Shown piece by piece: positions 260 through 41,384 of a stretch of 41,384 bases of DNA (the first letter of the stretch is position 1; the number at the start of each line of letters is the position of its first letter). The stretch lies in NCBI GenBank assembly GCA_003990765.1, contig RBNJ01000107.1, forward strand, positions 1-41,384. Direction: 5' to 3'. The notes under the pieces were generated by a model. It made no database searches. It saw nothing but the letters and a program-made list of their open reading frames with translations, and was not told the DNA's origin. A program made the position numbers and the translations under genes. The DNA is from Jimgerdemannia flammicorona (Eukaryota).

Positions 260-318
260 AGGTTGGCTGTTTTACGGGTCGGGTTTTGGGTTAATCGGGT
301 CGGGTTTGCGGAGCACTA

Positions 319-2057
319 TCCCTGATGAGCCGACCACCCACAAATCCCCTCTGCTCCACACCCACGACTTGCTGGGCCACCTTCTGTAGTCTTGCCACCA
401 CCACCTTGGTTACCAACTTTCTGTCCATATCTAGCAGCATTATCGGCTGCCAGTTCCAATCCTCCCGCCCTCCTTTGTTTTTGTAGAGCAGCATCACCAG
501 CCCAAGGTCCTGCTTCCCCACCCATGTACCTGTCTGTAGAATAAGGTCACACATTGCAGTCATCTCTCCCATCACCCCCGGGACTTCCACCATTCGTTTC
601 CAAAAGTCCCAGGGCAGCCCATCCTCCCCAGGTGCCATACCGGACATTGTCGTGGCAAGAACCTGGTGGATCTCACCCTTCTGTACAGGCATCACCAGGT
701 CCCCTAGCCCTTCAACTTGTGGTGGGTGCCAATCCTCCAATGTACGTTCAATTGTAGTGGCATCTACCCCACCCTCCTCCTCACTCCACAATCCACTCCA
801 TCTCTCCTTCAGCGATCCAAGAATGTCCTGAACACCATGCACTAGTACACCATCAGAGTCCAAGACCCCTTCCCACCATTGCTGGACCTGCCTCGCCCTA
901 AGGGCCCTTGAAAGAAGCTTGGAAGGCCTCTCTCCTTCCTCCAGATCCTGCCAACGAAGCTGTGCTGCCAAGCTTTGTACCCTTGCCTCTTCTTCCTCCT
1001 GCAGCACCCGTTGAAGTTCCCCAACCTCCATTTTCGCCCTCAGTAATCTCCAATCTTCTTCTCTCTCCAACATTGTCAGCCATGCCCACTCCTCCAGGAG
1101 CCTCGTCAATCGAGCAGAGGCCCAGCACACCTTTTGTTTTTGCTGCTTCCCTGCCTCCTTGCCAGCCTCCTTCTAGTAAATCCTGGCCATTTCCTTCATC
1201 CTCATCCACCAAGTCCCAACTGCAGCCCCTTCCTGCCTCCAGGTCTCCACCCTCAGCTGAATGTCTTTAGCCCACTCATCTCACCAGGTCTTGTCATCTA
1301 ACAAAGAGGAATTGAGGTGCCAATGTCCAGGCCCATCCCCACTTCCCCCAAAGCACCCCTGTCCCAAAAGCCCCCAGTGATCCGACCATAGACACCATTC
1401 CACCTCCAATGATTTCCAAACATCTAGGCCCCAGCAGCAAGCCATCAAAATCCAATCGATCCTAGTCCCCAGACCCCCTGCCCAATGTGTATAGACCTTC
1501 CTACTCCCCCAGCACTCCCTTCCAGCATCCAATAGTGCACTCAGCCTCTTGACTTCCTCCCATACCACCAGCCCTCCACTCCTGCCCTCAGCACCTCGTC
1601 CTCCATCTGATCTATCCATCAGTATATCCCTAACCATATTGAAATCTCCCCCAAGCACATCCACCCCGGCCTCCACAAGTAATCCACTCTCCTGTAGTCC
1701 CCTCACCCAATCGACCCTCTCACCCCGTACTGCAGGGCAGTAGCAAGAACCAACCATAACTGGTTCCCAGCCTACCCAAATCCACTCTCCCCAGACCAGT
1801 CTCTCCCCCCAGCACTGCACATTCTGTATCTCCCCTCTGCCTCTCCTAACCAAAATCCCAACCTTGCCCCTCCAAATTGCTGCACCACCCCATTTCTTCG
1901 TCCATTCTAATCTATCAAAGTCATCTTCACACTGGACATCCTGCAAGAGGAAGAGATCGGCCTCCAATCCCTTCATCCAAGTAAAAATGTTCCTACATCG
2001 AGAAGCGCCCCATAACCCATTCACATTCAAAGAGAAAATGTTTGTTGTACTGTTCAT
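319..2057 (-). pseudogene. LINE ORF2 (apurinic-like endonuclease plus N-terminal RT), with stops and frameshifts
   Basis: APE motifs SLNVNGL, FLLQD, GGDFN, TRIDW, SDHW. RT-region motifs APGEDGLPWDFW, W-PIMLLDMDRKL, EQRGFVGGRLIRD. Confidence 0.95.
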
Positions 2058-2090
2058 ATTGATGATATATGTGATGTCGTCAATCTGCCT

Positions 2091-4114
2091 CTACTGCTCC
2101 ATGCTCATCTCCTCCTGTGCCCTGTCCAAATTGTGTTCCGCAGCCACCTCCTCCTCTTCAGCCCTCTGAGCCTCCAATCCAGCCAGTAGTTCATTCATCT
2201 CGCCATCAGCCTTCTCCTCAAACTCTTCTCAGTATTCGATGCATGCTTCCTACCAGAGCTGTAGTCCATGTCGCTTGTTCCAGCAGTATTCAGCCCTTTC
2301 TCCAGCAACAACTGCCATCTCCTCCTCCCTCTCCTTATCTACCTCATATCCTTCCTCCTCCAGATACACCGCAAGAATTTCCGCCTTCAATGCCTTCATC
2401 ACGCCATCCCCCTGCAGTATTCTCGCCCAGTGCTCATCACTCATCACTCGCAAGTCTACTTCCCCCAACTCTTCCGCCGCCAGGTTATTCATCATCCGGC
2501 ACATCCAAAGCAAGTTCCCCACCTCTTTCGCCCCTGGAGTTGCTGGCCTCCCTCCATCCAACATTGTGGTATCAGCTCCAGCACTTGCAGACTCATCCCA
2601 TACTTCCGGGACATCCACCAGTTCCTCCTCGCCACCCGCCTCCACCTGTCTCCCATACGCCACCTCTGGAACTCCGAATTGCACCCGCTGGTCCCCTCGC
2701 ATTGGCACATCTTCCACCACCCTATTCCGGGAAGCCGGGCCATGCCTGATGAGAGGGATAGGGGTAGGGGAACCCACCCAGTCCTCCTCCCACACCTCTA
2801 GTGTACCATCCGCATACAGGTCCTTCCCCGCCTTCATCTTATCCTCCCCCGCCTCCTTCTTGTCTTTCCCCTCTCCCTCACCGACCCAGACACTCACTCC
2901 AGCTCCCCCTGAGCCCTTCATCTTGCTCACCTCCACCAGTAGTCCACTATCCACTTGGCCAACAACTCCTTCTGCCTCTTGCGCCCCTGAGCCCTTTCCC
3001 ACTGCTCCATGGTCACTCGAATCCGCTTTCCATCCACCACCTCCAAGTGTGTCGCCTCTTCAAAAGCCTCCCAAGCCTTCACTCGCCTCTCTACAGCCCC
3101 CCCAAGCTTCTCGAGCACTTCCAGTAAATCCTCCTCCTCTTCCTCACTCCCCTTCACCCTTGTCACCTTACACAGGATCACTCCCCAGACCATCGCTGAA
3201 GGCCAATCCCTTGCCTTCCCAGTGGCTTCCTTCCCAGCCAGCCGAATCCTCACATCCACATCACCAGTCCTGAGCAAGGTCCCCTCCCAGACCCTGAACC
3301 TGATATCGACCACCTCGTCATATTCCGCTATGAAATCCTCAACCCTCTTCCTCGTCTCCATTGCTGTCACCATCGGCACTCCCTTCACCAGCAGTTGGAC
3401 CACCCTGGGGTCCCACTTCAAGTACCGCACCATAGGAACACATACCTCCCCAACCATCAATCCAACCTTCAGCGCCTCCTCCAGTGGCGCCACCTCCTCA
3501 AAACCCACCTCCACTCCTTCCAGTCCCTTCAAAAACTTCACAGATGCTGCACCTGCCACCTGCTTAGCGATGAGCCCTAGCACCATTTTTGCCATCACCG
3601 CCATGCCCCGGAAGCATAGTGTGACCATGAATGCCGAAATTGATTTCTTGAGTAACAGAGCCACCACCAGACCCGTTACACTATCTGCCAAGTCCCCTTG
3701 CCTTCTAAGCCTCAGCCGCTCAGCCTCGTCATCAGCCGTCACATCTGGATTTTTTTCCAGATTGACAGTCCCAACACCATCAGCAGTCACACCCCCCCCA
3801 GCCACTACTCCCATAGCTCCACTGCCCCCCCTTCCAAGGGCCGCACCCCCTAGCACTGTCTCCTTCTCGGTCCCCTTGCCCTTCTTCAGCCAGCCCTCCA
3901 GCCCTAATGCCTGCTGCCTCCCCTTCACCATCTCCGCGAAGCTTGCCCTCCCAGATCCTGATCCTCCACCACCTCCTCCACCCCTTCCATGTCCACCTGC
4001 CAGCAGGCCCCTCATACCGCCCCCTAGGCCTGGCCCCCTCCCCACCTGCTGCCAGTCGAAAGCGCTAGGGCCGCCCTGCCCAGTATGCACCTCAGGTTGT
4101 CTGTCGGTTGCCAT
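2091..4114 (-). pseudogene. LINE ORF1 (gag-like nucleic-acid-binding protein), disrupted
   Basis: ORFs 2927-4114 and 2250-3002 join by a frameshift and end at TAG 2091-2093. The segment VQLLVKGVP...YDEVVDI...RTGDVDVRIRL resembles the RRM-like region of Tx1/L1 ORF1. It aligns with copies B and D. Confidence 0.85.
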
Positions 4115-4196
4115 GTTGTTAGTCTCTTTTTGCTGAAAACGTCGTCGAAAGTGCCTTCCAAAGGTTGTGTAACCTGAATGGTACTGGAAAGAGATG

Positions 4197-4267
4197 CAAG
4201 CCTGTGGGCAGCCTTCCTTTTATACAAATCTCCTCCTCCTCTCTCAATATCTTTGCAACTCCACTAC
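4197..4267 (-). mobile_element. Displaced piece of LINE copy B ORF2
   Basis: Joined to 10388 across one ACTAC it reads EDWRLEGVKLEVVELQ..ILREEEEI (one frameshift), matching copy D EDWRLARIKLEILELQQVLREEEEV. Confidence 0.85.
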
Positions 4268-4554
4268 TGTAAGCACACAACCTCCAAGCCACCGAAATCA
4301 CATATCACCCTCTGAACAAGCCACTGAAATCACATGTGAGCTCCAATCAAATCTGGAAATCACCTGCTTAATTATGAAGCTGAGTCAAACTGAAGTCACA
4401 GTGCACAAAGCTGAGTCAATATGAAGTCACAGAACACAAGATTCACATAAACAGAATCTTACCAATTAGGACCAAATGTATAATACCAAGCACTGAGACA
4501 CATCGAATCAGAGAACCAAAACAAACAACAACCACAACTTCCAAATACACAAAC

Positions 4555-5652
4555 ATGACCACCAAGATCTATATCTGTATCCGCATTGACATTTGGAATG
4601 CCATTGTCAACCGAGCCACACTCCCTCTGCCCCTCATGAATATCCATAGCCTAGCACCCCTCTACTTTGTGGAAGCCTGATGGAATGCTCTGAACATGCT
4701 TAGCAAGGCCTACCAAATCAGACAAATCTCAAGCTACTACCAGATCAGCTGCCTCCTGGAAGACATGATTGAACACCACCACGATACAGACATTACCCAG
4801 ATGTCTCAACACCAGAAGCTCATCGCCCACAAATATCGAGAACTCTTCTACGAGTATAGCACCATTATTCCCTGCCTCCAAGTTACTATAGCCAAAATGG
4901 TTACTACTCTGTTCTATGGCCAAATTGATGACATGATACAAGAACTCAACCACAAGTACCTTGAGTATGTTAAAACCACAGATAGAACCTTCCCACACCC
5001 CAATGATCATATCCTACAAATGCCCCAAGTTGGATATGCCATAAAGGACATCTATGATATAATCCACTTCGATGAAGATGAAGCAGAAGACAATGATCCC
5101 TCTGATGCCAACATGACCTCTAGCCAAGGATCTCTGCCAACCCTGATCACACCGCCAACCTTGCCGATGAACTTAAAACAATTCATAACAGCATACGAGA
5201 CTTATTGGGACAATGACCACTGGTATGAATACCAATCTACGTTCACCCCTGATTACTTCAACTATAATGAAGAGACCAGAGAACACAACCTGTACCTCCA
5301 GACAACCCTCGAGATCGAACCAACCACTCTACCACCTGAGTATGAGTGACATGAACCACAGCTGCCAGCTTACTACAACCCTGTGACTCATAGTGCTGTA
5401 AACTATAGAAGGTATACAAATAGTGAAACTGATGAAAGCGAAGATGTTGTACAGCTCCTTTGCCAACCAATACCTTACCCAGCATACAATACTGATAATG
5501 CCATCTTGTGGGATGGAGACAAAGTTCCAATGTATTATTACCTCAGCAAACAAGGAGAAGTAATCTGCGAACCACTCTTCCTAGACGACTACTTCATCAG
5601 AGATGATATAATTGATAGTGATATCATCAAGAACTACCCAGACAGTGCCTAA
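4555..5652 (+). pseudogene. Unknown 365-codon accessory ORF inside LTR U3 (copy 1)
   Basis: ATG 4555 to TAA 5652 in one frame. Only two TGA stops (4678, 5347), which are CGA and CAA in the other LTR. Confidence 0.8.
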
Positions 5653-5841
5653 ACCTATAAATAGCCTAGCAGTCATAGTATAGTTAGATTAGCCTTGTCC
5701 AATGTGACTGTGAACTGACTCAGTAGTCAGACGATCTCTTGACATGTCAGATCACACTTGTACTATGTGACTGCATTCCGACTCAGCAAGGCACTTAGTG
5801 CTACATCCATATCTAGCATAGTCTAGATAGCCCCTCACTAG

Positions 5842-5972
5842 TATAAATACCCCCTCCCCCAGACCTCAGAATCTCAGACTTGAACAATCCAAACACAACT
5901 CCTGAGCACTTTCCCACAATATCTCTTCACACAGCTACTCCTGGTATAGCAATATCATGAATAGCGAATAAA
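5842..5972 (+). promoter_or_regulatory. LTR core promoter (TATA) and polyadenylation signal
   Basis: TATAAATA at 5842 and AATAAA at 5967, both also present in the LTR copy at about 20894 and 21026. Confidence 0.6.
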
Positions 5973-6334
5973 CCTATTTAACAACCCACAAACCACTCTT
6001 AAGTAAATCCACTCCTTTTTAGGTCCCACTCCTAACCCCATCACGAAACTTCCTAATTGGGTATTGTCTGTAGCAATATGCTAATTCAACTAAGCTGGTC
6101 TTAGTTTTTGAACTTCCTGAAATATGGAAAATCCTGAACATTCAGAACTAGTCCAAAAAAGGACTTCGGTTGAGACGTCAACCCAATCTTGAAATCAATA
6201 AGCATAGAGGATGTACTCCATATGAAATTGATCTTGACCATAAGAAAATGGTCTTCCAGAATATCCAGAACTTCCAGAAAACCCTTCCAGAACTATGTAA
6301 TGGTTACCCTAAAAAGCAACCTTCTTACAACTTG

Positions 6335-6712
6335 AGTGGGTGGTTGGTACAAAGTGGGCTTGTTTGCTGAGATAGTCCATGAAGACAATAATTGCATCTT
6401 TCCCATTCTTGGTTTGGGGTAGTTGTACAATAAAGTCTATAGAGATTTTGCTAGGGTCCACTTTAATTCCATTTGGAGTGATAATGTGTCCAAGAAATTG
6501 AATTTCTTTCAGGAGAAATTCACACTTGCTGAGTTTTGCAAAGAGTTGGTTTCTCGGAGTTTCAGTAGGACTAATTCAAGGTATTCAAGATGTTCCTCCA
6601 GTGTTTTGCTGAAGACTAGGATGTCGTCAATGTAGACAACAACGAATTTGTCCAGGTATGGGTGCAGGATAGTATTCATCAGGGTCTGGAAGGTTGCAGG
6701 AGCATTAGTTAA
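6335..6712 (-). pseudogene. Fused Gypsy RT fragment and integrase fragment
   Basis: [35 protein letters not shown]...[17 protein letters not shown] runs directly into [35 protein letters not shown]. Confidence 0.92.
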
Positions 6713-6715
6713 GCT

Positions 6716-8288
6716 ATTCAGACAGTATATCGAATAAATGGTCTGCTCTTGTATCATTTCATGCTTCATCATTGGTGATATATCCTAGGCTGACAGTGTT
6801 TAGAAGTGACTCGAGTTTTGTACAGAAGGTTTTGAATTCTTCTTTGCCATGTATATCAAATTTGAGGTTGCAGAGTTTTACTCGGGATTCAGCAATTATG
6901 GTTTCACTGCAATATTGGGCAATCATGAGTTGTTTGAGTCCAGGGGCTACAGAATGGGCTCCATATCCTGGGGCATTGTTTGCTGCATTCTGAGCAACTA
7001 CTACAGGTCAGGTATCCCATGTGAGGGGTTTTTCAGGAAGAGTTTGCCACCATTCTTTGGCAGGTCCTTGGAAGAATGTAACAACTTGGTGGACATAGGC
7101 TATAGTAGTAGCAAAGAGTTGTTCCAGAGTGTGGTTTTGATTGTTTGTCAGAACATGGTCAGCAACTTGCTCATTGGTCCATTGATTGGCTTCGAAGTTG
7201 GTGTCAACTATACTAATAAAGCTTTGGACTTCTTGTGCAGTACCATTGAAGATAGGTAGGCTCAGATTTTTGGTAGGTCGGGTCTGTTCAGCTAAGGCAG
7301 TAATGGTTGCTGCCATTATGGCTACCTGGGCTGTGAGGTCTAAAATCTGTTGGTTTGCCATATTGTTTACTGGAGGCAGTTGGACTGCTGGTAGTGGTGT
7401 TACTGGTACTACTTGAGGTACTGGTGCAGAGTGTGATGGGGTTCTTTGGGTCTGTGTAAGTTGCTGGAGTAGTAGTTGTGGGTCTGGAGTGAGGGCTTGA
7501 TAGATAGCTATTTGTTGCTATGTAGGTGTATTCTGTTCTGATGGAGGTACTTCTCCTTCAGTGGTGTATCCGGGATCGAATTCACTGAGATACTCCTCCT
7601 CTTCTTCGGTTTAGGCCTCATGTAATTAGGTTTGCTTGGCATCAAAGTAGATGGAATCAGTTGTATATCTGATTTCAGATGGACTTAATTCAAAGTCAAG
7701 TTTAGGTTCAGTATTGGTTTCAGATTCAGGTAGGGCTGTAGCAGGGCCTGCTTCAGGTTTGGGGTCAGGTAGTTGATGAAGGGTTTCTCTTGCTTCTTCT
7801 TTAAGAATATGGCAGGCCTTGCTGTTCTGGAATCGGTAGTATAATGTGGTCTTAGTCCTGGTGCGGTGAAAGTCAGTAGAGTTGAGCCACTTGGCTACAG
7901 AGGCTTGGGCTTCATGAGGAACTAAGGCTAGAAAGACTGCTGCTGGTTGTCCTAGGTCACTCGGATTTGTGGAGCTGACAAAACTCTTATTAAGAAGAGT
8001 AAAGAAGGCTTCAATAAGACCTTCTTCATCTTGACTTGCTGGATATAGTGCAAGGAGTTTGGTGAATAGGGTTTTGCCTATTTGCTAGTTTAACTGGAGT
8101 ACTTCTTTCTTTGAATGAAGTTTGTCTCACTTGTTGCAGGTGTGGAGGTCAGATTGTCCTTGTATGTCAGGTTCAATTCTCTCCAGATTGTCAGATGGAT
8201 CAGGATAAATTCCAGTTCAGAGGTTGGGCTTTATACCAACTTGTACATAGGAATTCACAGAGGGGTTTGTAGCAGGGTGAGGAAGCAT
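6716..8288 (-). pseudogene. gag: Ty3/Gypsy gag, 3'-truncated with in-frame stops
   Basis: ATG 8288 is in frame with ORF 7008-7361. Capsid-like motifs LPIFNGT..VQSFIS and FFQGPAKEWW; lies directly after the LTR and PBS. Confidence 0.75.
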
Positions 8289-8312
8289 CTTGAAGTGGAA
8301 TTGGATTGTAAA

Positions 8313-8324
8313 CTGCTGCTATCA
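8313..8324 (-). promoter_or_regulatory. Candidate primer-binding site (TGATAGCAGCAG, possibly decayed TGGTAGC..., initiator-Met-tRNA-like)
   Basis: Begins 3 nt after the LTR CA end; one G>A change away from the TGGTAGC iMet PBS start. Confidence 0.45.
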
Positions 8325-8327
8325 AGT

Positions 8328-10387
8328 TGTAAGGTTGCTTTTAGGGTAACCATTATGTAGTTCTGGAAGGGTTTTCTGGAAGTTCTGGATATTCTGGAAG
8401 ACTGTTTTCTTATGGTCAAGATCAATTTTGTATCGAGTACATCCTCTATGCTTATTGATTTCAAAATTGGGTTGACATCTCAACCAAAGTCCTTTTTTGA
8501 ACTAGTTCTGAATGTTCAGGATTTTCCATAATTCAGGAAGTTCAAGAAACTAAGACCAGCTTAGTTGAATCGGCATATTGCTGCAGACAATACCCAATTA
8601 GGAAGTTTTGTGATGGGGTTAGGAGTGGGACCTAATAGGGAGTGGAGTTACTTAAGAGTGGTTTGTGAGTTATTAAATAGGTTTATTCGCTATTCATGAT
8701 ATTGCTATACTAGGAGTAGCTGTGTGAAGGAATATTGTGGGGAAGTGCTCAGGAGTTGTATTTGGATTGTTCAAGTCTGAGATTCTGTGGTCTGGGGGAG
8801 GGGGTATTCATACTAGTGAGGGGCTATCTGGACTATACTAGATATGGATGTAGCACTAAGTGCCTTACTGAGTCAGAATGCAGTCATGTAGTACAAGCGT
8901 GATCTGACATGTCTAGAGATCGTCTGACTGCTGAGTCAGTTCACAGTCATGTTGTACAAGGCTAATCTAACTATACTATGACTGCTAGGCTATTTATAGG
9001 TTTAGGCACTGTCTGGGTAGTCCTCAATGACATCACCATTGATTGCATCATCTCTGATGAAGTAGTCATCTAGGAAGAGTGGTTCATGGATTACTTCTCC
9101 TTATTCGCTGAGGTAATAATACATTGGAACTTCATCTCTGTCCCATAAGATGGCATCATCAGTATCATATGCTGGGTAAGATGTTGGTGGGCAAAAGAGC
9201 TGTGCATCATCTTCACTTTCATCAGTTTCGCTATCTGCATACCTTCTATAGGTTACAGCACTAGGAGTCACGGGGTTGTAGTAAGCTGGTGGCTGTAGTT
9301 CATGTTGCTCATACTCAGGTGGTGGAGTGGTTGGTTCGATCTCGAGGGTTGTCTGGAGGTACAGGTTGTGTTCTCCAGTCTCTTCATTATAGTTGAAGTA
9401 ATCGGGGGTGAATGTGGGTTAGTATTTGTGCCAGTGGTCATTGTCCCAATAAGTCTCGTATGCTGTTATGAATTGTTGTAAGTTCATCAGCAAGGTTGGC
9501 AGTATGATCAGGGTTGGCAGAGATCCTTGGCTAGAGGTCATGTCAGCATCAGAGGGATCATTGTCTTCTGCTTCATTTTCATTGAAGTGGATTATATCAT
9601 AGATGTCCTTCATGGCATATCCAACTTGGGGCATTTGCAGGATATGATCATTGGGGTGTGGGAAGGTTCTATCTGTGGTTTCGATATACTCGAGGTACTT
9701 GTGGTTGAGTTCTTATATCATGTCATTGTTTTGGCCATAGGACAGGGTAGCAACCATTTTAGCTGTAGTAACTTGGAGGCAGGTAATAACAGTGCTATAC
9801 TCATAGAAGAGTTCTCTATGTTTGTGGGCAATGAGCTTCTGATGTTGAGACATCTGGGTAATGTCTGTATTGTGGTGGTGTTTGATCATGTCTTCCAGGA
9901 GGCAGCCGAACTGGTAGTAGCTTGAGATTTGTCCGATTCAGTAGGCCTCGCTAAGCATGTTCAGAGCATTCCATCGGGCTTCCACAAAGTAGAGGGGTGC
10001 TAGGCTATGGATATTCATGAGGGGCAGAGGGGGTGTGGCTCAGTTGACAATGGTATTCCAAATGTCAGCACGGATACAGGTATAGATCTCAGTGGTCATG
10101 TTTGTGTGTTTGGAAGTTGTGGTTGTTGTTTGTTTTGGTTCTCTGATTTGATGCATCTCGGTGCTTGGTATATATGCATTTGGTCCTGATTGGTAAGATT
10201 CTCTTTGTGTGAATCTTGTATTCTGTGACTTTGTATTGACTTAGCTTTGTGCACTGTGACTTCGGTTTGACTCAGCTTCATGATCAAGCAGGTGATTTCC
10301 AGATTTGATTGGAGATCGCGTGTGATTTCAATGGCTTGTTCAGAGGGTGACATGTGATTTTGGTGGCTTGGAGGTTGTGCGCTTACA
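8328..10387 (-). repeat. LTR (2060 bp), minus orientation; 5' LTR of the gag-bearing unit
   Basis: Inverted copy of 4268-6329 with the same TGTAAG/CTTACA termini. Confidence 0.92.
9002..10099 (-). pseudogene. Unknown 365-codon accessory ORF inside LTR U3 (copy 2)
   Basis: Same 1098-nt length as copy 1. Its stops (9938, 9713, 9419 and one near 9102) correspond to CAA codons in copy 1. Confidence 0.8.
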
Positions 10388-13300
10388 ACTACCTCCAATT
10401 TCACCCCCTCCAGTCTCCAATCCTCCACCTCTTCAGAAGAAAGCAAATCAGTCCATTCCATCTGCAATCTAATTAGCCTATTAGAAGCACACCTCACTCA
10501 CTTCCTTCTCTGCCTCCCAGCCTCCCTATCAGCTCCTCCCCAATACACCCTTGCAGCCACCTTTAACCTCATCTAGCAGGCACCCACCAATGAACCCTCA
10601 TGTATCCAGTGAGTGATCATTACTTAGATATCCTCTATCAATAGGACCTACAACCCCTTCTCAGCCAGCAGAGAGGAGATAAGGCACTAATGTCTGGGCC
10701 CATCTCCACTTCCCCCAAAATGCTGCTGCCCCAATAGCCCCCAGTGATCAGACCATAGGCACCACTCCACCTCCAGGGTCCTCCAAACTTCAACACCCCA
10801 ACATTCAGCCATCAGAATCCAGTCAATTCTCATACCCAGCCATTCATCCAGTGTATATACATAGACCCTCCTGTTGCCCCAACATATTTTACCCATATTC
10901 TCTAAGGAGGAGAGATTCTCTGCCTTCTCCTACTTTTCCAGTCCACCACTCCTCCTGCCTGCATTCCTCTCTCCACAGTTCTATCTAACTGTAGATCCTG
11001 CACCATATTAAAGTCACCTCCCAGAACATTTATGCCTTCCTCCAAGAGAATGCCTTCCTCCAAAAGATCCCTAATCCACTCAATCTGCTCACCCCTAACC
11101 ACAGAGCAGTAGCAGGAGCCAATCTTTACAGATTTCCACCCAGGTTGATGCCATTCTCCCCAGACCAAGCAGTCACCCCAGCTCCTGATTCTGCTCAAAT
11201 CTCCTCTACCCTTTCTCACCAGAATCACCACTTTGCCAATCCAAGTAGTAGCTCCTCTCCATTCTCTAGTCCACTCTACCTGATCTTCCTCACCCTCACA
11301 CCATATATCCTGTAGTAAAAAGATATCAGCCTCCAATCCCTTAAGCGAAGTAAAAATGTTCTTCTGCAGCCCAGCCCCCCATAATCCATTCACATTCAGA
11401 GAGAAAATGTTAGTTGTACTGTTCATTAGGAATAATGTTAATTATCAATTGCATCCTCTACAAATCCACATTCAACTCCTTCTCTGCCAAGTCCAAGTCA
11501 TGTTCTGCAGCCAGCTCCTTCTCTTTAGCTGCCTGTACCTCCAACCCTTCCAGAAGTTCATCCATTGTCCCATCCTCCTTTTTCTCAAAGTCCTCATAAT
11601 ACTCCAGATATGCCTCCTGTCAGAGTTGCAAACCATGATGCTCTGCCCAACAGTAGGCAGCCTGCTCACCAGCAACAACTGCCAGCTCCACCTCTCTCAC
11701 CTTATCAACCTCATATCCCTCCTCCTCTAGGAAAATCACAAGAATCTCTGCCTTCAGTGCCCCCACCACTCCCTCACCATACAGAATCCCTGCCCAGTGC
11801 TCCTCACTCATCACTCACAGATCTACTTCTCTCAACTCCTCAGCTATGAGGTTATCCATCACCTTGCTCAACCACAGCAAGTTCCCCACCTCCTTCCCTC
11901 CAGGTGTCCCTGGCCTTCCTATATCCAGTATCATGGTATCTGCCTCTATACTAACAGTCTCATCCCATCCCTCCTCAGGGATATCCACCAGTTTGTTCTT
12001 ACCAACAGCCACCACCTGTCTCCCTTTTGCAACATCAGGAACCCCAAAGTATACCCACTGAGCACCCCACATCAGCTTGTCCTCTGCTACCCAACTCCTC
12101 ACAGCTGGACCCTACCTGATCAGAGGGGGAGTGTTATCCACAACTGGGTCCCAGACCTCAAGTGTACCATCAGCAAATGGGTCCTTGAGAGGCACATTCT
12201 CAGCCCCTTCCAAGCCCTCCTCTCTATCACCACCTCTCTTACTAGCCCAGACACTTGCCTCCACTCCCCCAGACTTCTCAGGGCCCTCAGCCTTCATCTT
12301 TGCCCCTCCTTCCATGCTCACCAGTAACTCCCTCTGCCTCCTATACTCTTGAGCCCACTCCTACTATTTCTTGTCAATATGAATATATTTCCCATCAACA
12401 ATTTCCAGATGTATCGACTCTATATACAATTTCCAGGCCTTCACCCTCTGCTCAACAGCACCACTCAACTCCTCCAGAGCCTCCAACAAGTCCTCCTCCT
12501 CCTCCTCACTCTCTCTCACCCTTAATATCATACAGACAAAAGCCCCCCACATCAACACCAATGGCCAGTCACTTGTCTTCTCCATAGCCTCCCTTCCAGC
12601 CAGTCTAATTCTGACATCTATGTCACCTGTCCTAAAGGAGGTCCCCTCCCACACCTGGAAGCCAACATCCACCACATCACCATACTCCACCATTACCTCC
12701 TCCACCCTCCTCCTAGTCTCCTCCTTCATCACTGTAGGCACCCCCTTTACCAGCAACTGTACCACTCTGGGGTCCCACCTCAGTCAGCATACTATGGGGA
12801 CCACTACTTCCCCAACTACCACTCCAGTCTTCAGAGCTTCTTCCAGTGGGCCTACCTCCTCAAAACCCACCTCAATCCCCTCCAGACCCTTCAGAAACTT
12901 TACTGAGGTAGCCCCAGCCACCTACTTCAAGATAAGCCCCAGGACCATTCTTGCCATTACTACCAAGCCCCAGAAGCACAAGGTGATCACAAACTTCAAA
13001 ATTGACTTCTTGAGCAATGGTGTCACCATCAACCCCCTCATACTATCTGTCAGGTCCCCCTTCCACATTAGCAACCCCTGCCCCAACTTGCCATCAGCCA
13101 TCACATCTCTTTTTTTTTCTTGATTCCCCATCACACTCCCATTGACAGTCACTCCCCCAGCCACAGTATCTCCAGCACCTATGCTTGCATCCCTGACCTG
13201 AGTACCACTCTCCCTCCTGATGCTTGCCTTGCCCTTTCCCTCAGCAGCACCAGCTCTAGTTTCAGCTGGCCATCTACTCATCTTCACCTTATTGACAAAG

Positions 13301-13563
13301 CTAGAGGGGCCAGTCCTTCCCCCAGCTCCACCTGACACCAGTTCTCCTCCAGAATCTTCTCCACCCTTTAACCCTCCAAAGGCCCCTATCCCCAGACCAC
13401 AACCTCTCCCTACATTCTGTCAGCTGAATTCCCTAGATCTCCCTGACCTGGCATACCCATCAGAACTCTTGCTCAATAATATTAGTATAGTATCTTTTCT
13501 CCAAGTTGTGTCAAAAACTGTTGCTTGAAGTTGGTATAATATGAATTGTACAGGAGAAAGGTG
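10388..13563 (-). mobile_element. L1/Tx1-like LINE copy B (older, CpG-erased): ORF1 about 11460-13480, ORF2 start 11426
   Basis: MNSTTNIFSLNVNGLWG, GGDFN, SDHW; ORF1 fragments align with copies A and D; 5' end CACCTTTCTCCTGTAC. Confidence 0.93.
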
Positions 13564-18350: not shown

Positions 18351-18399
18351 TCTTGGCAGAATTAAAGAAATTTCACCAGAAAGCTATTCTGTCAGTATC

Positions 18400-19095
18400 T
18401 CCTTCTGCTCAAAGCTGACCTCTACCTCTTCCTGTCCTTTCAAAAACTTCCCCAAAGTGGCCCCTTCACCTCTTAAGCCAGAAGCCCCAGAATCATTCTT
18501 ATTGTAACCACCAAGTCTCAGAAGCACAATGTGATGATAAATTCAGACCTCAATTTCTTAAGTAATAGTGCTGCCACCAGTTCCATCACACTATCTGTCA
18601 AGTCCCCAGGCCTTGTATCCACCCCCTGTCCAGATCCACCATCAACTGTCACATCTGGATTTTTTTCCAGATTAGCAGTTACCCCACCATCAGCAGTCTC
18701 ACTCTCCCAGCCACTGCTCCCCCAGCCCTACTGCCCTTGTCTCCATAGGCCACTCTCTCAGAACCTACAGCCCTTGCGATCTCCTTGCCCTTCCTCAGCC
18801 AGCCCTCTAGCCCAGTCATCATTGTCAGTTGACCTCCCTTTACTTTATTCATGAAACTCATCCTCCCTATCTTCTGTACTCTAATACTACCCCCTCTCCT
18901 TCCTTGTCTTCCTGTCAGCAAGCCCCTCATACTTCCCCCAAAGCTATGGCTCCTCCCCACATACTGCCAGTTGAACACACTAGGGCCACCCTGCCCAGCA
19001 TACACCTTGGAATGCTCAATAGATGCTATATTGCTAGTACCTTTTCTCCAAAAACAATGACTTGAGAGTTGCTTGAAGTTTGTATAACCTGAACA
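18400..19095 (-). mobile_element. LINE copy C, 5' UTR and first part of ORF1 only
   Basis: YAGQGGPSVFNWQYVGR...GGSMRGLL matches the ORF1 N-terminus; upstream TTCAGGTTATACAA matches the family 5' UTR. Confidence 0.88.
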
Positions 19096-19099
19096 TTGT

Positions 19100-20155
19100 A
19101 TGATAGCTTATACAAGTCAAGCTACCAATCAGCAGCAAGCTAATTATAGCAGCACCAAACTAGAATATCTTATAGTTATATAGAAAGTTACTCTGTTCAA
19201 ACACTACCTTATCAGAAAAAGATTCACTCTGATAACTGATCATACTGCTCTCAAATGGCTATTCAACTATAAGAAATCCACTAAAATTCTTGTCTGCTGG
19301 ATTCATATCCTATAGAATAACAAAATCACCATTATTCACAAAGTAGAAAAAGCTGACAATAATATTGATGTACTTTTTCACTAACTCTAATGAATTAGTA
19401 GAATAGTGTACTAAGGAACTATTCCCTAAAGGAAGCTTTTTTGAGCATCAAAGTACAAGAAGATCTCATTCAAAAAGAACATCAAAAAGCCCACCAAGGA
19501 TAGAAGAAAAGCTGTGAATAATATACCAACATTGGCCCAATCTCAGAATATAAGTCTGAGACATACTTAAGAAATATAATATCTGCCAAAGATACTAAGA
19601 AAAGAAGAACTATCAAGCATTACTACAACTAATCATGCTATTAGATAATATTTTTCAGAGATAGAGAGTAGATGTAATTAGTTATATCAAGAAGAAACAA
19701 ATATATTATAGTATTTATAGAATATCTGACTAAATGATCAAAGACTTTTCTAATGGAAATCACTAATGCCCTGTAAGTATACAACCTCTAAGCCATCAAA
19801 ATTGCATGTCATCCTCAGAACCAATTTGGAAACCACATGTGAGACTATAAAACAAGTTACTGAGGAGATCATCTGATTACACAAAATATGTCAGCAAGCA
19901 TGAGAACCTATAGCCAAGATACAAGAATACCAGAAGAAGTACTACAACTATAAGACTGACTCTGAACCCCTATAACTGGTTGATATACTATACTATTACA
20001 AAAGAAAATCAAAAGTACCAAACTCAAACTGAGACAAGAAGAACTCTATCTCATCCATCAAAGGTTTATGAACTGCACTTATCAACTCAAGACCAAAATA
20101 TATCACAACTATACAAGATCTCATTACTTAGCAGAAGTAAAACACATTTGAACAA

Positions 20156-20207
<52 letters not shown>

Positions 20208-20500
20208 GTCACTTGGACTCCTTTCCTTTATTACACCCATCTATCCCATATAATTACAGTAAACATTTGAACAACTCTGTTCACTCTATCAGTATCACCT
20301 CTATTGGAGAGTGACAGATGCTTCATCTGAACTCAAGAAAGCTGACATTATTGAAACCAATCTCAAGCCATCCATGTAATAGATATTATCACTAGAAATT
20401 GTCTCAGATTATAGAAAATATCATTTCTAAGAGGTTCAAATCCCCAGTCACAACATTGGGAGCCCTCACCCTAGACAAGAATGGCCAGTCCTCACAAATG
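19100..20500 (+). pseudogene. Heavily decayed Gypsy pol remnant (RNase H to integrase)
   Basis: ANYSSTKLE, FTLITDHTALKWL, KYIIVFIEYLTK and an HPQ-TN-like motif in shifting frames. Confidence 0.75.
20144..20278 (-). mobile_element. Severely 5'-truncated poly(A) retro-insertion with 16-bp TSD
   Basis: ACATTTGAACAACTCT at 20144-20159 and 20263-20278 flanks a 58-nt body with AATAAA (20227-20232) and an about 45-nt A tail. Confidence 0.9.
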
Positions 20501-20649
20501 TGCCAGAAGTCTAAAAAAAAAGAGAACCAAAACCTGTTATTCTTATACAATCACTATCACTAAGGATAGTCTTAATCTTGCAAGAGATAGAAGTGATGAT
20601 ACCTTGGAAACTGATGATATCAGAAGTCAGAAAACTGCTCAGACTTTGC

Positions 20650-21388
20650 CAGAGATGATGTCATCAATAGTGATGTCATTGAAGATTACCCAGACAGTGT
20701 CTAAATCTATAAATAGCTTAGCAGTCATAGTATAGTTTGATTAGCCCTGTATGATATAACTGTGAACAGACTCAGAAGTCAGACAATCTCTTGATATATC
20801 AGATTACACTTGTACTATGTGACTGTATTCTGACTCAGCAAGACACTAAGTGCTACATCCATATTCAGTATAGCCCAGATAGCCCCTCACTAGTATAAAT
20901 ACCCCTCTCCCTGACCTCAAAATCTCAGACTTTAATAGACTCGAACAAACAAGAATATTCCTGAACACTTCCCCACAATATCCCTTTACACAACTACTCC
21001 TAGTATAGCAATATTATAAATAGCAAATAAACCTATTTAATAACCCACAAACCACTCTTAAGTAATCTACTCCCCATTAGGTCCCACTCCTAACTCTATT
21101 ATGAAATTTCCTAATTGGGTATTGTCTGCAGTGATATGCCAATTCAACTAAGCTGGTCTTAGTTTCTTGAACTTCTTAAAATATGAAAAATCCTGAACAT
21201 CCAGAACTAGTTCAAAAAAGGACTTTGGTTGAGACATTAATCTGATCTTGAAATCAATAAGTATAGAGGATGTACTCTATATAAAATTGATCTTGACCTT
21301 AAGAAAATAGTCTTCCAGAATATCTAGAACTTCCAGAAAACCCTTCCAGAACTACATAATGGCTATCCTAACAAGTAACCCTCTTACA
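20650..21388 (+). repeat. Third, partial copy of the 2-kb LTR family (3' about 740 bp, lacks most of the U3 ORF)
   Basis: Aligns with about 5598-6329 and ends CTTACA; homology stops abruptly at about 20650. Confidence 0.9.
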
Positions 21389-24329: not shown

Positions 24330-27000
24330 CCAATTTTCGTACAACCGCCACACGCTCCACCATCCTAGACGGTCCAGCCGCTGCTTATACGACGCGCCCC
24401 ACGGCCCTGTCATGACGCGCTTAATGACGTCCTCCATCGCTTAATAATGACGCCGTTGACTGCGACGCGCTCCACCATGACGCCTTTCAACGCGCCGCGT
24501 TCCACCACTCAAGGCCATCCCCTGGTTGCTACTACGTCGCGCCCCGCGGCCCCTTATCACTATATCTCCACCACGACGCGTTTCTCCACCCTGACGCGGT
24601 CTACCACTCAAGGCCGTTCCGTGACTGCTACTACGTTGCGCCCTCCACCACCACGAAAATTTCTACCGTGACGCGCTCCACTACTCAAGGACGTCCTGTG
24701 GCTGCTACTACGCCGCTCCCCGTGGGCCCTATTGCGGCGTGCTCCACCACGCCAGACCGTCCCATGGATGCTTCTACGACACGTCCCACGGCTGCAATCA
24801 CGCACTACCGTCACTTTGATGCTTCTATGGGCCGCTTCTACGACGCTAACTGCCGCGTCCCGCGGGTCCTACCACGACACGCACCGCTACTTCTACTACG
24901 ACATGCCCCACCGCTACAAGAATACCGCACCCTACGGCAGCTGCCACGACATGTCTCACCGGTTGTATAACTACGAGCAACGCCACCACTATAGCGACGT
25001 GCCCGTAGTTGTTTCCACAACGAGCCATGCGGCTGCTACCTCGAAGCGCGACGCTGCTTCTGGCGCTACGATCTCCGCCGCGGGTCCAACGACGCGTCCC
25101 ACGGCCGCATCACGCGAGACCGTACCTTTGATTCTTCTATGACGCGACCCACGGCCGCTTCTACGATGCGCCCGCGGCTGATAACGCGACACGCACCGCT
25201 ACTGTTACTACGACATGCCCCACGGCTAAAAGAACAACGCACCCTACGGTAGCTGTCACGACACGTCCCCACGCTCCTATAACTACCAGCCCTGCCACCA
25301 CTACAGCGACGTGCCCGCGGTTTTTCCACAACGAGTCGTGCGGTTGCTACCTCGAAGCGCAACGCTGCTTCTAGCTCTACGATCCCCGCCGCAGAACCAA
25401 CGACGCGTCCCACGGCCACTCTCATGCAAGATCGTCCCTTTGGTGATTTTACGACGCGCCCGCGGCTGTTAGTATGTCGGGTCCCGCGAGCCCTACCATA
25501 ACACGCACCGCTATTGATACTACGACACTCCACACGGCTGCAAGGACAACGCACCCTGCGGGCAATTGCCACGACGCATTCCATCACTTCTATGTCTACG
25601 AACTCTGCTACCACTACAGCTACGTGCCCGTGGTTGTTTCCACAACGAGCCATGCTGCTGCTACCTCGAAGCGCAACGCCGCTTCTTACACTACGATCCC
25701 AGCCGTAGGTCCAACGACGCGTCCCACGCCGCTATCACACAAGACCATCCATTTTGTGCTTTTATGGCGCGCCCCACGGCCGCTTCTACGGCGCGCCCAC
25801 GGCTGATAACACGCCGCGTCCCGCCGGTCCTACCATGGCACGCATGGCTACTGCTACTACGGCAACCCCACGGCGACAAGAACAACGTACCCTACGACAG
25901 CTGCCATGACACGTCCCACCGCTTCTATAACTACGAGCCCTGCCACCAGTACAGCGACGTGCTCGTGGTTGTTTCCACAACGAGCCATGCGGCTGCTACC
26001 TCGAAGCGCAACGCCGCCTCTAGCACTGCGATCCCCGCCGCGGCTCCAACGACGCGTCCCACGGCCGCTATCACGCAAGAGCGTCCATTTTGTGCTTCTA
26101 TCTCGCGCCCGCGGCCGCTTCAACGGCGCGCCCACTTCTGATAACACGCCACGTCTCGGCAGTCCTACCAAGACACGTAGCGCTATTGCTACTACGACAC
26201 GCCCCGTGGCGACAAGAACAACGTACCCTACGGCAGCTGCCACGACACGTCCCACCTCTTCTATAACTACGAGCCCTGCCACCACTATGGCGACGTGCCC
26301 GTGGTTCGAAGCGCGACGCCGCAGGTCCAACGACGCCTCCCACGGCCACTACCGTCCCTTTGATGATTTTAAGACGCGCCCGCAGCTGCTAACACGTCGC
26401 TTCCCGCGGTTCCTACCATGACACGCATCGCTACTGCTACTACGACAAGCCCCACGGCTACAAGAACAACATACCCTACGACAGCTGCCACGGCACGTCC
26501 ACCACTTCTATAAACATGAACCCTGCCACCACTACGGCGACGTGACCGTGGTTGTTTCCACTACGAGCCATGCGGCTGTTACCTCTAAGCGCTACACCGC
26601 TTCCAGCACTACAATCCCCACCACAGCTCGAACGACGCGTCCCACGGCCGCTATCATGCAAGTCCGTCCCTTTGGTGCTTCTACGACGCGCCCGCGGCTA
26701 CTAACGGGAGTCCTACCATGACACGTACCGCTACTGCAACTATGACACACCCCACTACAAGGAAAAGCACCCCTCGGCAACTGCCACGACGCGTCCCACC
26801 GCTTCTATAACTACAAGCCCTGCCACCATTACAGCAGCTTGGCCGTGGTTGTTCCCACAACGAGCCATTCGCCTGCTAGCTCGAAGGGCTACGCCGCTTC
26901 TAGCACTACAATTCGCCGCAGCTCCAACGAAGCGCCCAGCGGCTGGTAACACAACATACCCCGTAACTGCCACCTCGACGCGTCCCACCGCTTCTATCCA
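24330..27000 (+). repeat. GC/CpG-rich higher-order tandem repeat (24-nt monomers in about 250-336-bp units, about 7 copies) with broken Thr/Ala/Pro-rich coding potential
   Basis: Marker GTTGTTTCCACAACGAGCCATGC recurs near 25008, 25319, 25633, 25968, 26303 (truncated), 26551 and 26848. Monomer consensus is about GCTACTACGACGCGCCCCACGGCT (ATTTRPTA). Confidence 0.9.
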
Positions 27001-34830: not shown

Positions 34831-35949
34831 TGGTAATAGGAAGGCCGAGACGAGAAAGCAGAAAGGCTGGGAACAGGAGAGCAGGAAGGCTAGGGAAAGG
34901 AGAGCAGGAGGCTGAGGGCAGCTGAGTGTTTTGTAAAGTTTTGCAAGGAAGTTTGACAAGGGAGTTATGGTTGGAAATTTTTTCTCAAGGGTAGATTTGT
35001 GAAAGAAGAGAGGAGAGTTCGAAAGGGCGAAGAGTTCCAAGGAGAGGATTGAGGGTAATGGAGAGTTCGAATGGGACAAAGGGGAAGGGGGAGGAAAAGG
35101 GTAGTGGCGAATGAGTTTATTTATGCGGGTATTCAGGGGGTGTGTGGCGTTTAGCAGCTGCATCCTCCTGACATAGGACTGCTATTCTTGATGTATATAC
35201 ATGCTTGTGGTCGTGTGGTATTCCATCAAAAGAGTCTAAATTTTTTATTTCTTTCACCCCTTTCATCTGCTCCGATATTCGGTTCCATCTTTAAGTTCAA
35301 TTTCTTCGCCGAATTTTGGTCATTCTCCAAAATTATCTTTGTTGAGATCCAAGTGTACTTCGCCGAAATCTCCTTCACTGACGAGGTCCCTCTGCTGTAT
35401 CTTGTCCGCTCCGAGAACAATAATCTTCCTAGAGATGGATATCTATCACCCCATCAAGATGATACATTTGCATACCCTCGAAAGGGGAGGAATTAACGGA
35501 AATCATTATTTTCATTTGCAGTAGAATTGTCCTCCGTACGAAAATCCTTAATTCTTACATCAACAAGTTCTTCCACTTCTTTGAATACTTACTTTATTCC
35601 ATTCATTAACAAATTAGACACAAGATGAATTGAACGTGTTTTCAAGCGCTTCGAATAATAATAACCAGTCTCATAGTTATGTAGTTGAGAGTAAAACAAA
35701 TGTTGGCTACCCATGGTGTATTCCAAGTTCGCTAAACCTTCATGAAACCGAACGAAACTCCTCCGAACCCCTTTTTTGCGCCTATTCTTCTCAGATCACA
35801 ATCTACCTATGACATGTCACTCACAATTCAAGGGGTACATCACTGGGAAGCACGCAAACGGCGAAGTCATCTTTCTCCAGTAACATTCAGGTTACACAAT
35901 CTTTTGGCAACACTTTTGACACAGTTTCTGGAGACAAGCTACTAGTATC

Positions 35950-37992: not shown

Positions 37993-38024
37993 AGGTTGGG
38001 ATCACTTTTTTAAAATTATTCCTT

Positions 38025-41000: not shown

Positions 41001-41384
41001 ACCTTTGGCCAAACAGTTGGCAGGCAGTTGGGATCAGCAAGGAGTGGGACTGGGCTGGTATCTGGTCTTGAAGTGCTAAGGTGCAGCGTAGGCTTCCCCC
41101 CAAGTTCTGGGTGGTGTGGTGGTGAATGCTGCAGAGGAATGTCATGCTGAATTTCTGCACTGGGTATCTGGTGGATGGTAGCTGTTTCGATTGTGAGGAG
41201 TGTTACAATGTAGGGTAAGTTGGGAGGTTGGTGCAGATACCGGAACATTGGCTGGGGGAGTGTGAGGTTTTGGGGGACTTTTGGGTTGAAATAGGGAATA
41301 GACTGGGTGTAGAGCACAGGCCAGTGGGCAAAGGGGATCGCTGGGAGAACCTGAGGTCTCAGCTGGTGGGGGGGGTGGGTGATA
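38025..41384 (+). pseudogene. LINE ORF2 (APE endonuclease plus reverse transcriptase), disrupted
   Basis: Start ATG>ATA; GGDFN, FLDQEKAYD, RRGVPQGDPLSPILY, AFADDM, ISLAGQVSILNTYWFPKLWY. Confidence 0.96.

Follow-up and report, generated by a model that had tools for sequence, protein, structure and literature searches.

How could a Gypsy-derived insert come to carry its two long terminal repeats (LTRs) in inverted orientation and at the same time be flanked by a perfect target-site duplication (TSD)? Such an insert lies inside a LINE on contig RBNJ01000107.1 of Jimgerdemannia flammicorona, within the 41,384-nucleotide stretch analysed here (the window), which contains no N, and its structure was confirmed by sequence analysis. 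The left LTR is full length (4268–6329, forward strand, 2,062 bp) and inverted relative to the coding region, while the right LTR (8328–10387, reverse strand, 2,060 bp) is the normal 5′ LTR of the coding strand. The two arms align end to end with 92% identity (1,893 matches, 147 transitions, 18 transversions and four indels making up 6 gap columns, including one of 3 nt at the U5 tip), and this alignment, together with the family copies, bears out the proposal of the initial annotation that two 2.06-kb LTRs converge with their U3 ends outside. Both outer ends are U3 ends, since TGTAAG followed by C or T marks the U3 end in family copies and CTTACA the U5 end. The U3 region of the left LTR contains an open reading frame (4681–5652, forward strand) with one internal stop, which is open over 311 codons in a natural copy and has no Pfam match. 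The unit is flanked by ACTAC at 4263–4267 and 10388–10392 (forward strand), a 5-bp TSD abutting both TG ends exactly at a site that is single in other LINE copies. When the unit and one ACTAC are removed, the LINE flanks align without gaps at the site to five distinct other LINE copies (76–79% identity; six rows, one copy being represented twice), which upholds the earlier claim that excision restores the host sequence. The host LINE continues to the right (10393–13419, reverse strand; endonuclease region 10902–11441); only about 60–70 nt of it lie to the left of the unit, followed by a second LINE copy.

The 2.0-kb spacer comprises three Gypsy pieces on the reverse strand, separated by two microhomology deletions. 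The primer-binding site (PBS), leader and gag region (6710–8327) is collinear with ordinary copies over 1,618 bp. It meets a 275-bp reverse transcriptase (RT) fragment (6441–6714; RVT_1, E=2.7e-11) at junction J1 (6710–6714), a deletion of ∼2.05 kb that removed the end of gag, dUTPase, protease and the start of RT at the microhomology GCTTA, which reads GGCTTA in most family copies. Junction J2 (6441–6448), with the 8-nt microhomology AAATCTCT, marks a deletion of ∼1.07 kb (end of RT, RNase H and start of integrase) and leads to an integrase-core fragment of about 110 bp (6335–6448), which corresponds in position to the rve region of a natural copy and whose terminal tract shows weak complementarity to the PBS. 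Junction J3, at about 6335, joins this fragment to ACTTG (6330–6334, forward strand), the first 5 nt of the primer-binding region, which equals an unprocessed U5 end. The inverted copies ACTTGA and TCAAGT just inside the LTRs, which the initial annotation had taken as a 6-nt microhomology, are present as described but do not represent an integrase/PBS microhomology: ACTTG is the PBS start, the sixth base of ACTTGA is derivable from either side, and TCAAGT is found at the integrase position in none of the 49 integrase sequences listed, the window's own locus excepted.

Ordinary copies of the parent family have direct LTRs, a PBS, a polypurine tract (PPT) and a 5-bp TSD. Their 3′ LTRs are directly preceded by the PPT AAGAAGGGGAGAGT, and the U5 end of their 5′ LTRs is followed by ACT-TGGTAGCAG, from which the PBS of the inverted unit, ACT-TGATAGCAG, has decayed. 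No tRNA genes were found in the window with ARAGORN. Pfam domains of the family include dUTPase, protease, RT, RNase H, integrase and chromodomain (PF00385, E=2.4e-14 in L174), the last of which lies at the C terminus of integrase, assigns the family to the chromoviruses and is part of what the window unit has lost. The Pfam domains of natural copies follow the Ty3/Gypsy gene order (gag, protease, RT, RNase H, integrase), as do the gag, RT and integrase pieces retained in the unit, and the TG...CA LTRs, the PBS after the 5′ LTR and a TSD within the 4–6-bp range are likewise those of Ty3/Gypsy elements. The unit resembles family members such as G000:C103 (10,636 bp) in its LTR, PBS, gag, RT and integrase sequence (∼88–93% identity), its TG...CA ends and its 5-bp TSD, and differs from them in that its LTRs are inverted, the PPT and 4.5 kb of the internal region are gone, and it is single-copy and dead. 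Lacking direct LTRs and a PPT before a 3′ LTR, it is a derivative of a Ty3/Gypsy element rather than an intact one.

The inverted arms recall DIRS-1, in which inverted terminal repeats surround gag and RT but which relies on a tyrosine recombinase together with an internal complementary region that repeats the outer LTR ends (as described in PMC7192593). Unlike DIRS-1, the window unit contains integrase sequence and complete retroviral-type LTRs and derives from a family with direct LTRs. The whole spacer maps to a Gypsy copy, and specifically to gag, RT and integrase, with neither a tyrosine recombinase nor an internal complementary region; within it, TGTAAG occurs once, in isolation, at 7455, and CTTACA not at all. 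Since the parent family encodes an rve/H2C2 integrase, the initial assignment to integrase-type rather than DIRS elements is supported.

A mobile inverted-LTR form, also considered at the outset and here taken as non-autonomous with DIRS-like or TIR-like behaviour, would fit the integrase-type ends and the perfect TSD, but the genome-wide searches make it hardly probable at all. The J3 pattern has one exact match in the assembly and no true second match at two mismatches, no other match among the 40 scored spans J1, J2 or J3, and a clean PBS-tail/integrase junction has no match in the assembly at three mismatches. Screening for U5 ends followed by a truncated PBS, at an estimated sensitivity of about a third of such junctions, returned seven matches, of which only the window unit is inverted; the other six are four normal 5′ LTRs with PBS indels and two unrelated flanks. 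Two further candidates were rejected as second inverted units. At G000:C228, LTRs stand tail to tail ∼40 bp apart, and since a separate TSD (GTCAC/GTCAT) flanks the complete LTR, the locus represents two insertions; at G000:C4561, convergent LTRs 1.3 kb apart result from a nested antisense insertion. Several copies with the same deleted structure at different sites, as in TRIM- or LARD-type groups, are thus not seen among the scored matches. Since J1–J3 are found only here, the unit is a one-off and immobile; without a PPT and a direct second R region it could not be recopied by the normal route, and it has no recombinase. The initial annotation had reasoned that a unique junction combined with arms from different subfamilies would mark a one-off rearrangement; the junction is indeed unique, but the arms are sisters within one subfamily.

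This kinship is seen in several comparisons. In genome-wide comparison, each arm is the best match of the other (92%, compared with 89–91% for the next best), they form a split against the rest with 99% bootstrap support in a 34-row tree, and they are sisters with a local support of 0.93 in a FastTree analysis of a larger set with purine/pyrimidine-coded rows. A rare allele at LTR position 1187 is confined to the two arms, one at position 1223 is found in the arms and one other LTR among 127 pattern matches, and the right-arm allele at position 1740 occurs in 1 of 99 other listed matches. Four or more rare alleles are common to 11 of 5,460 pairs (105 LTRs), and 9 of the 10 pairs besides the arms are the two LTRs of one element. 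However, six rare alleles are also common to two LTRs that belong to different elements, so that the kinship does not prove origin from a single molecule. C-to-T decay is similar in the two arms and the spacer (9.7, 8.0 and 7.8%).

We propose, with a probability of about 0.58, that reverse transcription went wrong in a Gypsy particle on a single occasion, that the resulting cDNA carried a U3 end at both tips, and that integrase inserted it to give the dead unit seen here. From the observed anatomy, unique junctions and arm kinship we infer the following course. Plus-strand strong-stop DNA (U3-R-U5 and the start of the PBS) would have missed its normal partner and primed instead on a plus-sense template within the integrase gene. 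Extension would then have run backwards across integrase, RT and gag, with two skips at direct microhomologies of 5–8 nt, and on through a second LTR. Second-strand synthesis would have yielded DNA with a U3 end at each tip, which integrase could have inserted with the ordinary 5-bp duplication, since the U3 and U5 tips of the family are the same 6-bp inverted repeat (TGTAAG/CTTACA). The exact TSD is in agreement with this proposal, as are the end of the left arm at the LTR plus 5 nt of the PBS, which fits an unprocessed strong-stop end, the position of all three junctions within 390 bp, compared with internal regions of at least 6.2 kb in all 13 ordinary elements measured, the kinship of the arms and the similar decay of arms and spacer. 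The break also lies inside a tract with 7 of 8 positions complementary to the PBS core, a post hoc and weak match. On the other side, J3 is no clean annealing product, as ∼7 nt are absent relative to a PBS-tail junction, and the arms carry too many transversions. The aberrant cDNA suggested in the initial annotation is therefore retained as the best reading, but not its switch at the 6-nt microhomology. Two variants were rejected: integrase autointegration at J3, because 5 nt of the PBS remain past the CA, whereas the nine other antisense junctions of the family join directly at the CA/TA end, and an in-place flip of the 3′ LTR, because host sequence rather than PBS would come next.

The transversion excess is specific to the arms. 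They differ by 18 transversions in 2,055 bp, compared with 4.9 expected from 13 pooled ordinary 5′/3′ pairs (Poisson P=4e-6, age differences ignored), while transitions are typical (7.2%, compared with 5.3–10.4% in ordinary LTR pairs) and the spacer has one rare transversion in 1,883 bp. The resulting 8.8 transversions per kb exceed every full-length ordinary 5′/3′ pair and fall within the range of unrelated subfamily pairs (median 11.3), 24% of 274 subfamily pairs not known from one element being as close. Each of the 18 is confined, or almost confined, to one arm, and they were accordingly rejected as markers of other lineages. If the arms were identical at birth, the excess requires either later extra mutation or two RNA templates. 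Pol-zeta mutagenesis near inverted repeats is reported to reach up to 8 kb into the flanks (PMC3681665), and because of this reach it does not by itself explain the quiet spacer.

These data bear on each of the alternatives. A single element may have been rearranged after insertion, a template switch during repair or replication having put a reversed copy of its own 5′ LTR in place of the 3′ LTR, the PPT and 1.4 kb of integrase, with entry at the shared TGTAAG tip and exit 5 nt into the PBS; the internal deletions at J1 and J2 would date from that event or from later ones. Microhomology-mediated break repair is expected to involve series of short template switches, the 6-bp TGTAAG is as long as the J1 and J2 microhomologies, and such a course would keep the original TSD and make the arms sisters. 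However, it requires the switch to hit the terminal base of the element exactly, and it predicts that the arms postdate the insertion and resemble each other more than the members of ordinary LTR pairs do, whereas transitions are typical and transversions higher; we regard it as possible but unlikely. A somewhat less probable origin is from two elements, a second family member having inserted antisense in the first, with one deletion through TGTAAG fusing the outer ends and another removing the second element past 5 nt of its PBS. Members of the family often lie nested in or directly next to one another in antisense (9 of 129 U5 ends besides the window unit, G000:C4561 among them), and the transversion distance within the subfamily range keeps this model open, as had been argued initially. 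Against it stand the two additional precise deletions, the reciprocal best matches and rare alleles shared by the arms, which are matched in number by just 1 different-element pair among 5,460, the transversions that mark no other lineage, and the near absence of rare transversions from the spacer, which is contiguous with the right arm.

An assembly or amplification artefact (a mis-join or inverted chimera) is very improbable. With 35,354 contigs the assembly is fragmented, the family has many copies and no locus-spanning read set was seen, but the contig has no N and both flanks rejoin one LINE with an exact TSD. Neither arm is a technical copy of the other, since they differ by 8% and carry private alleles. 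Four soil metagenomes (shares of 0.05–0.23 among the runs found) contain pieces of the family and the LINE with normal continuations at J1–J3 and the LINE site; they yielded no locus-spanning piece, which is evidence neither for nor against the assembly.

A template-switch model for LTR retrotransposons was reportedly put forward by Sabot and Schulman in 2007 and is cited in a preprint on rice. The rice complex LTR retrotransposons described there (bioRxiv 10.1101/452573) are aberrant cDNAs made from several templates and integrated in a single step with a TSD, much as proposed for the window unit, and their outer LTRs are not necessarily the most similar; they have three or swapped LTRs, unlike the window unit, and the words invert, orientation, opposite and antisense do not occur in the main text of the preprint. 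Our literature search returned DIRS papers, one HTLV-1 paper and the rice preprint and scarcely covered older Ty1, retrovirus and subscription work, so that the absence of a precedent carries little weight. Antisense LTRs ∼2 kb apart also link the unit to Mu killer and an antisense nested EVD insertion (PMC11624286), which, unlike the unit, arise by inverted duplication or nesting; the EVD locus was not tested as a siRNA source in that paper. A silencing trigger of the Mu killer type acts through a hairpin transcript and small RNAs that silence the family in trans. The antisense arms could in principle yield hairpin or convergent double-stranded RNA against the family.

The unit is most likely a rare copying error inserted by its own element's integrase and not a new kind of mobile element, and as a single dead copy it has little importance in itself. 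It does suggest that DNA bounded by U3 at both tips can be inserted by a Gypsy integrase in vivo, and that the second strand transfer can be misdirected to the wrong strand. We tentatively raise the rather unlikely possibility that two-U3 Gypsy cDNAs are a recurring, undescribed class of reverse transcription products in fungi, formed when the PBS tail of strong-stop DNA primes on a PBS-like tract of the other RNA, that each plants a family-wide hairpin (a silencing trigger and LTR-to-TIR intermediate), and that transversions then accumulate in the arms at about four times the rate of ordinary LTR pairs and also faster than in the spacer. If such inserts recur, they would provide a one-step route to hairpin loci, potentially silencing a whole family, and they would escape LTR finders that require direct repeats. 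The transversion excess in the arms and not the spacer is a warning that inverted copies may defeat dating by LTR pairs; it also provides a natural setting in which to test for mutagenesis linked to inverted repeats.

The Gypsy insert with convergent LTRs (window unit) is 6,120 bp long (4268-10387), has a copy of ACTAC on either side, and lies in a window containing no N. Its left LTR (left arm; 4268-6329, +) and right LTR (right arm; 8328-10387, −) align end to end, bearing out the initial annotation's description of LTRs that face each other, and over the whole length they differ by 147 transitions, 18 transversions and four small indels. Both outer ends are U3 ends, because ordinary (direct-LTR) copies of the family fix which LTR tip is U3 and which is U5. 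When the unit and one ACTAC were deleted in silico, the site was gapless against five distinct other LINE copies (76-79% identity), and the earlier claim that removal restores the host LINE therefore stands. To the left, about 60-70 nt of host LINE are followed by the 5' end of another copy (291-4219, −), which lies within or against the host copy. The same LINE family, with copies at 70-80% identity, comprises this copy, the host copy itself (10393-13419, −) and those at about 18390-19100 (−) and 35887-41150 (+). Elsewhere, the contig start (1-300) carries tandem 12-13-bp and 33-bp repeats with the core GGTCGGGTT, and an array rich in GC and CpG occupies 24350-27000. It is built of ∼312-bp units that have 24-bp sub-repeats, both of its strands have long open frames, and the surrounding retroelements are CpG-poor by contrast.

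Searches of the same genome gave 4,172-6,220 candidates each in a first look, of which 40 per search were scored. Ordinary copies have direct LTRs, with ACT-TGGTAGCAG just after the 5' LTR and AAGAAGGGGAGAGT just before the 3' LTR; solo LTRs have 5-bp TSDs, and one natural copy measures 10,636 bp. Frames in relatives of this copy match dUTPase, protease, RT, RNase H, integrase, SH3 and chromodomain families, which identifies the parent as a dUTPase-bearing Ty3/Gypsy chromovirus. The dUTPase domain lies immediately ahead of the protease (L180:6491-7195, −). The family U3 also carries an ORF of ∼310-320 codons with no Pfam match (4681-5652, +, mirrored in the right LTR), open through 311 codons in a natural copy (L172:1529-2461, −). 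A solo LTR of a family variant (19772-21388; TGTAAG...CTTACA, TSD TGCCC/TACCC) aligns to the arms over its last 730 bp alone and so has a different U3, as in contigs G000:C1176 and C1938. Self-nesting is frequent and often antisense (G000:C4561, C3005, C3132, C645, C103, C1453 and C1511); in C3005 and C4561 it has left convergent LTRs separated by 0.6-1.3 kb. Two LTRs on G000:C228 (L203:1312-4520) form a tight tail-to-tail inverted repeat with a gap of ∼40 bp; a TSD flanks the complete LTR by itself, which marks the two as separate insertions. L120 (G000:C16056:51-2112), preceded by a PPT and followed by a PBS, sits in the middle of a tandem or three-LTR element; it has six rare alleles in common with a solo LTR that is nested on C3132. 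The 5' and 3' LTRs of L066/L089, L071/L087, L067/L090 and L080/L140, on separate contigs, can be re-paired by matching TSDs and common rare alleles.

On the minus strand, the window unit opens with its right arm as a normal 5' LTR, after which come the PBS and 1,618 bp collinear with other copies. A deletion of ∼2.05 kb then joins gag to RT (J1) at GCTTA, for which most copies have GGCTTA; a 275-bp RT piece follows, and a second deletion of ∼1.07 kb at AAATCTCT (J2) leads into ∼110 bp of integrase, which ends at the inversion joint (J3), where CAAGT is linked to the reversed left LTR. The PPT and the final 1.39 kb of the internal region are missing, and internal regions are at least 6.2 kb in all 13 ordinary elements measured. 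None of the three joints was spanned by any other match among the 40 scored per search. A pattern search for J3 gave one exact match and two at 2 mismatches, which on cursory view read as unrelated or PBS-variant sites.

The initial annotation took the inverted 6 nt inside each LTR (ACTTGA/TCAAGT) for microhomology at a possible fold-back or template switch, which the family alignment contradicts. ACTTG is the first 5 nt beyond the U5 end in ordinary 5' LTRs, the integrase break point reads ...CCAC(T/C)ACTGCAAC in the family, and TCAAGT occurs there in no other printed row. On this comparison, the 6 nt comprise a remnant of the PBS and a single ambiguous base, and the left arm has the form of a strong-stop or cDNA end that was not processed. 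The retrieved loci contain 129 distinct U5 ends (63 normal 5' LTRs, 49 with unrelated flanks, 7 abutting sense and 10 antisense family sequence), and of these only that of the window unit has a PBS remnant ahead of an antisense part. The break tract in the reference copy is complementary to the PBS core at 7 of 8 positions, with 3-5 such sites per 8-mer in 6.5 kb. This may favour priming by the PBS tail, but is only a hint, because it was noticed afterwards, J3 lacks ∼7 nt that clean annealing would leave, and a clean version of the junction occurs nowhere else in the assembly.

The arms are reciprocal best genome matches (92%, with the next best at 89-91% among the 40 scored per search) and belong to one subfamily, in which there are at least 124 other LTRs. 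With 2 mismatches tolerated, a search pattern covering LTR positions 1176-1203 matches the two arms alone, and the allele at position 1223 is found in them and one other LTR. Only 11 of 5,460 pairs (105 LTRs) have at least four rare non-deamination alleles in common: the arms (four alleles), nine same-element pairs, so called from a common contig or matching TSD, and one different-element pair. Purine/pyrimidine-coded trees place the arms as sisters, with 99% bootstrap (34 rows) and local support of 0.93 (88 rows with >900 aligned bases). A unique junction between LTRs of different subfamilies had been proposed as the mark of a one-off rearrangement; the junction is unique, in keeping with a one-off, and the sister arms exclude different subfamilies.

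The 18 arm-arm transversions compare with 4.9 predicted by 13 ordinary 5'/3' pairs (1-8 in full-length pairs), an excess that counts against a simple single origin of the arms. The 274 subfamily pairs that do not knowingly share an element have a median of 11.3 transversions per kb, and 24% of them lie at or below the arms' 8.8. Of the 18 changes, 7 fall in the left arm and 11 in the right, all of them private or nearly private; at 7 of the 8 sites listed inside the LTR ORF an amino acid is altered, in line with unselected mutation. Both arms and the spacer between them (6330-8327) have ordinary levels of transitions and C-to-T decay. The spacer has one rare transversion in 1,883 bp (binomial P=0.0075 versus an equal rate, for one element and a test made after looking), so that 18 in about 4.1 kb of arms against 1 in 1.9 kb reverses the pattern of the 13 ordinary elements, none of which is depleted in this way (P=0.53-1.0). 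An origin from two different RNA templates could account for the arms but not for the quiet spacer; extra mutation after the inverted repeat formed is the simplest account. Inverted repeats are described as raising Pol-zeta mutagenesis in yeast, as far as 8 kb into flanking DNA (PMC3681665), and inverted repeats that are spaced and diverged as able to pair in single-stranded DNA (PMC10164571). Neither predicts an arm-only effect, and the arm-only excess is therefore unexplained.

LTR reverse transcription follows a normal series of steps, and RT tends to delete between short repeats. We favour an origin (probability roughly 0.6) in which plus-strand strong-stop DNA would misprime on a plus-sense template inside integrase, extension would run backward with two microhomology skips and on through a second LTR, and second-strand synthesis would be followed by integration via two U3 ends. 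Fold-back of one plus strand would give an identical sequence, indistinguishable from mispriming. A templated inversion after insertion is an unlikely alternative. Nested antisense insertion with deletions, to be weighed with both the sister arms and their transversion excess, is rather less plausible still. An artefact is very improbable for a gapless insertion site in a window free of N, and a mobile form even more so: a screen for U5 ends with a cut-off PBS, covering part of the possible junctions, gave seven matches and no second inverted unit in the family. A look-up by sequence with 5900-7000 likewise turned up nothing similar.

In the literature searched, whose coverage has large gaps, we found no description of an integrase-type element whose LTRs are inverted and bounded by a single TSD. 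Unlike DIRS elements (PMC7192593), the window unit derives from a Gypsy chromovirus, and its geometry resembles that of hairpin-forming transposon derivatives (PMC11624286). The nearest described class comprises complex LTR elements that arise ahead of integration (bioRxiv 10.1101/452573), a source whose main text makes no mention of inversion and whose table and supplements could bear on this. The window unit itself is real, a one-off and dead.
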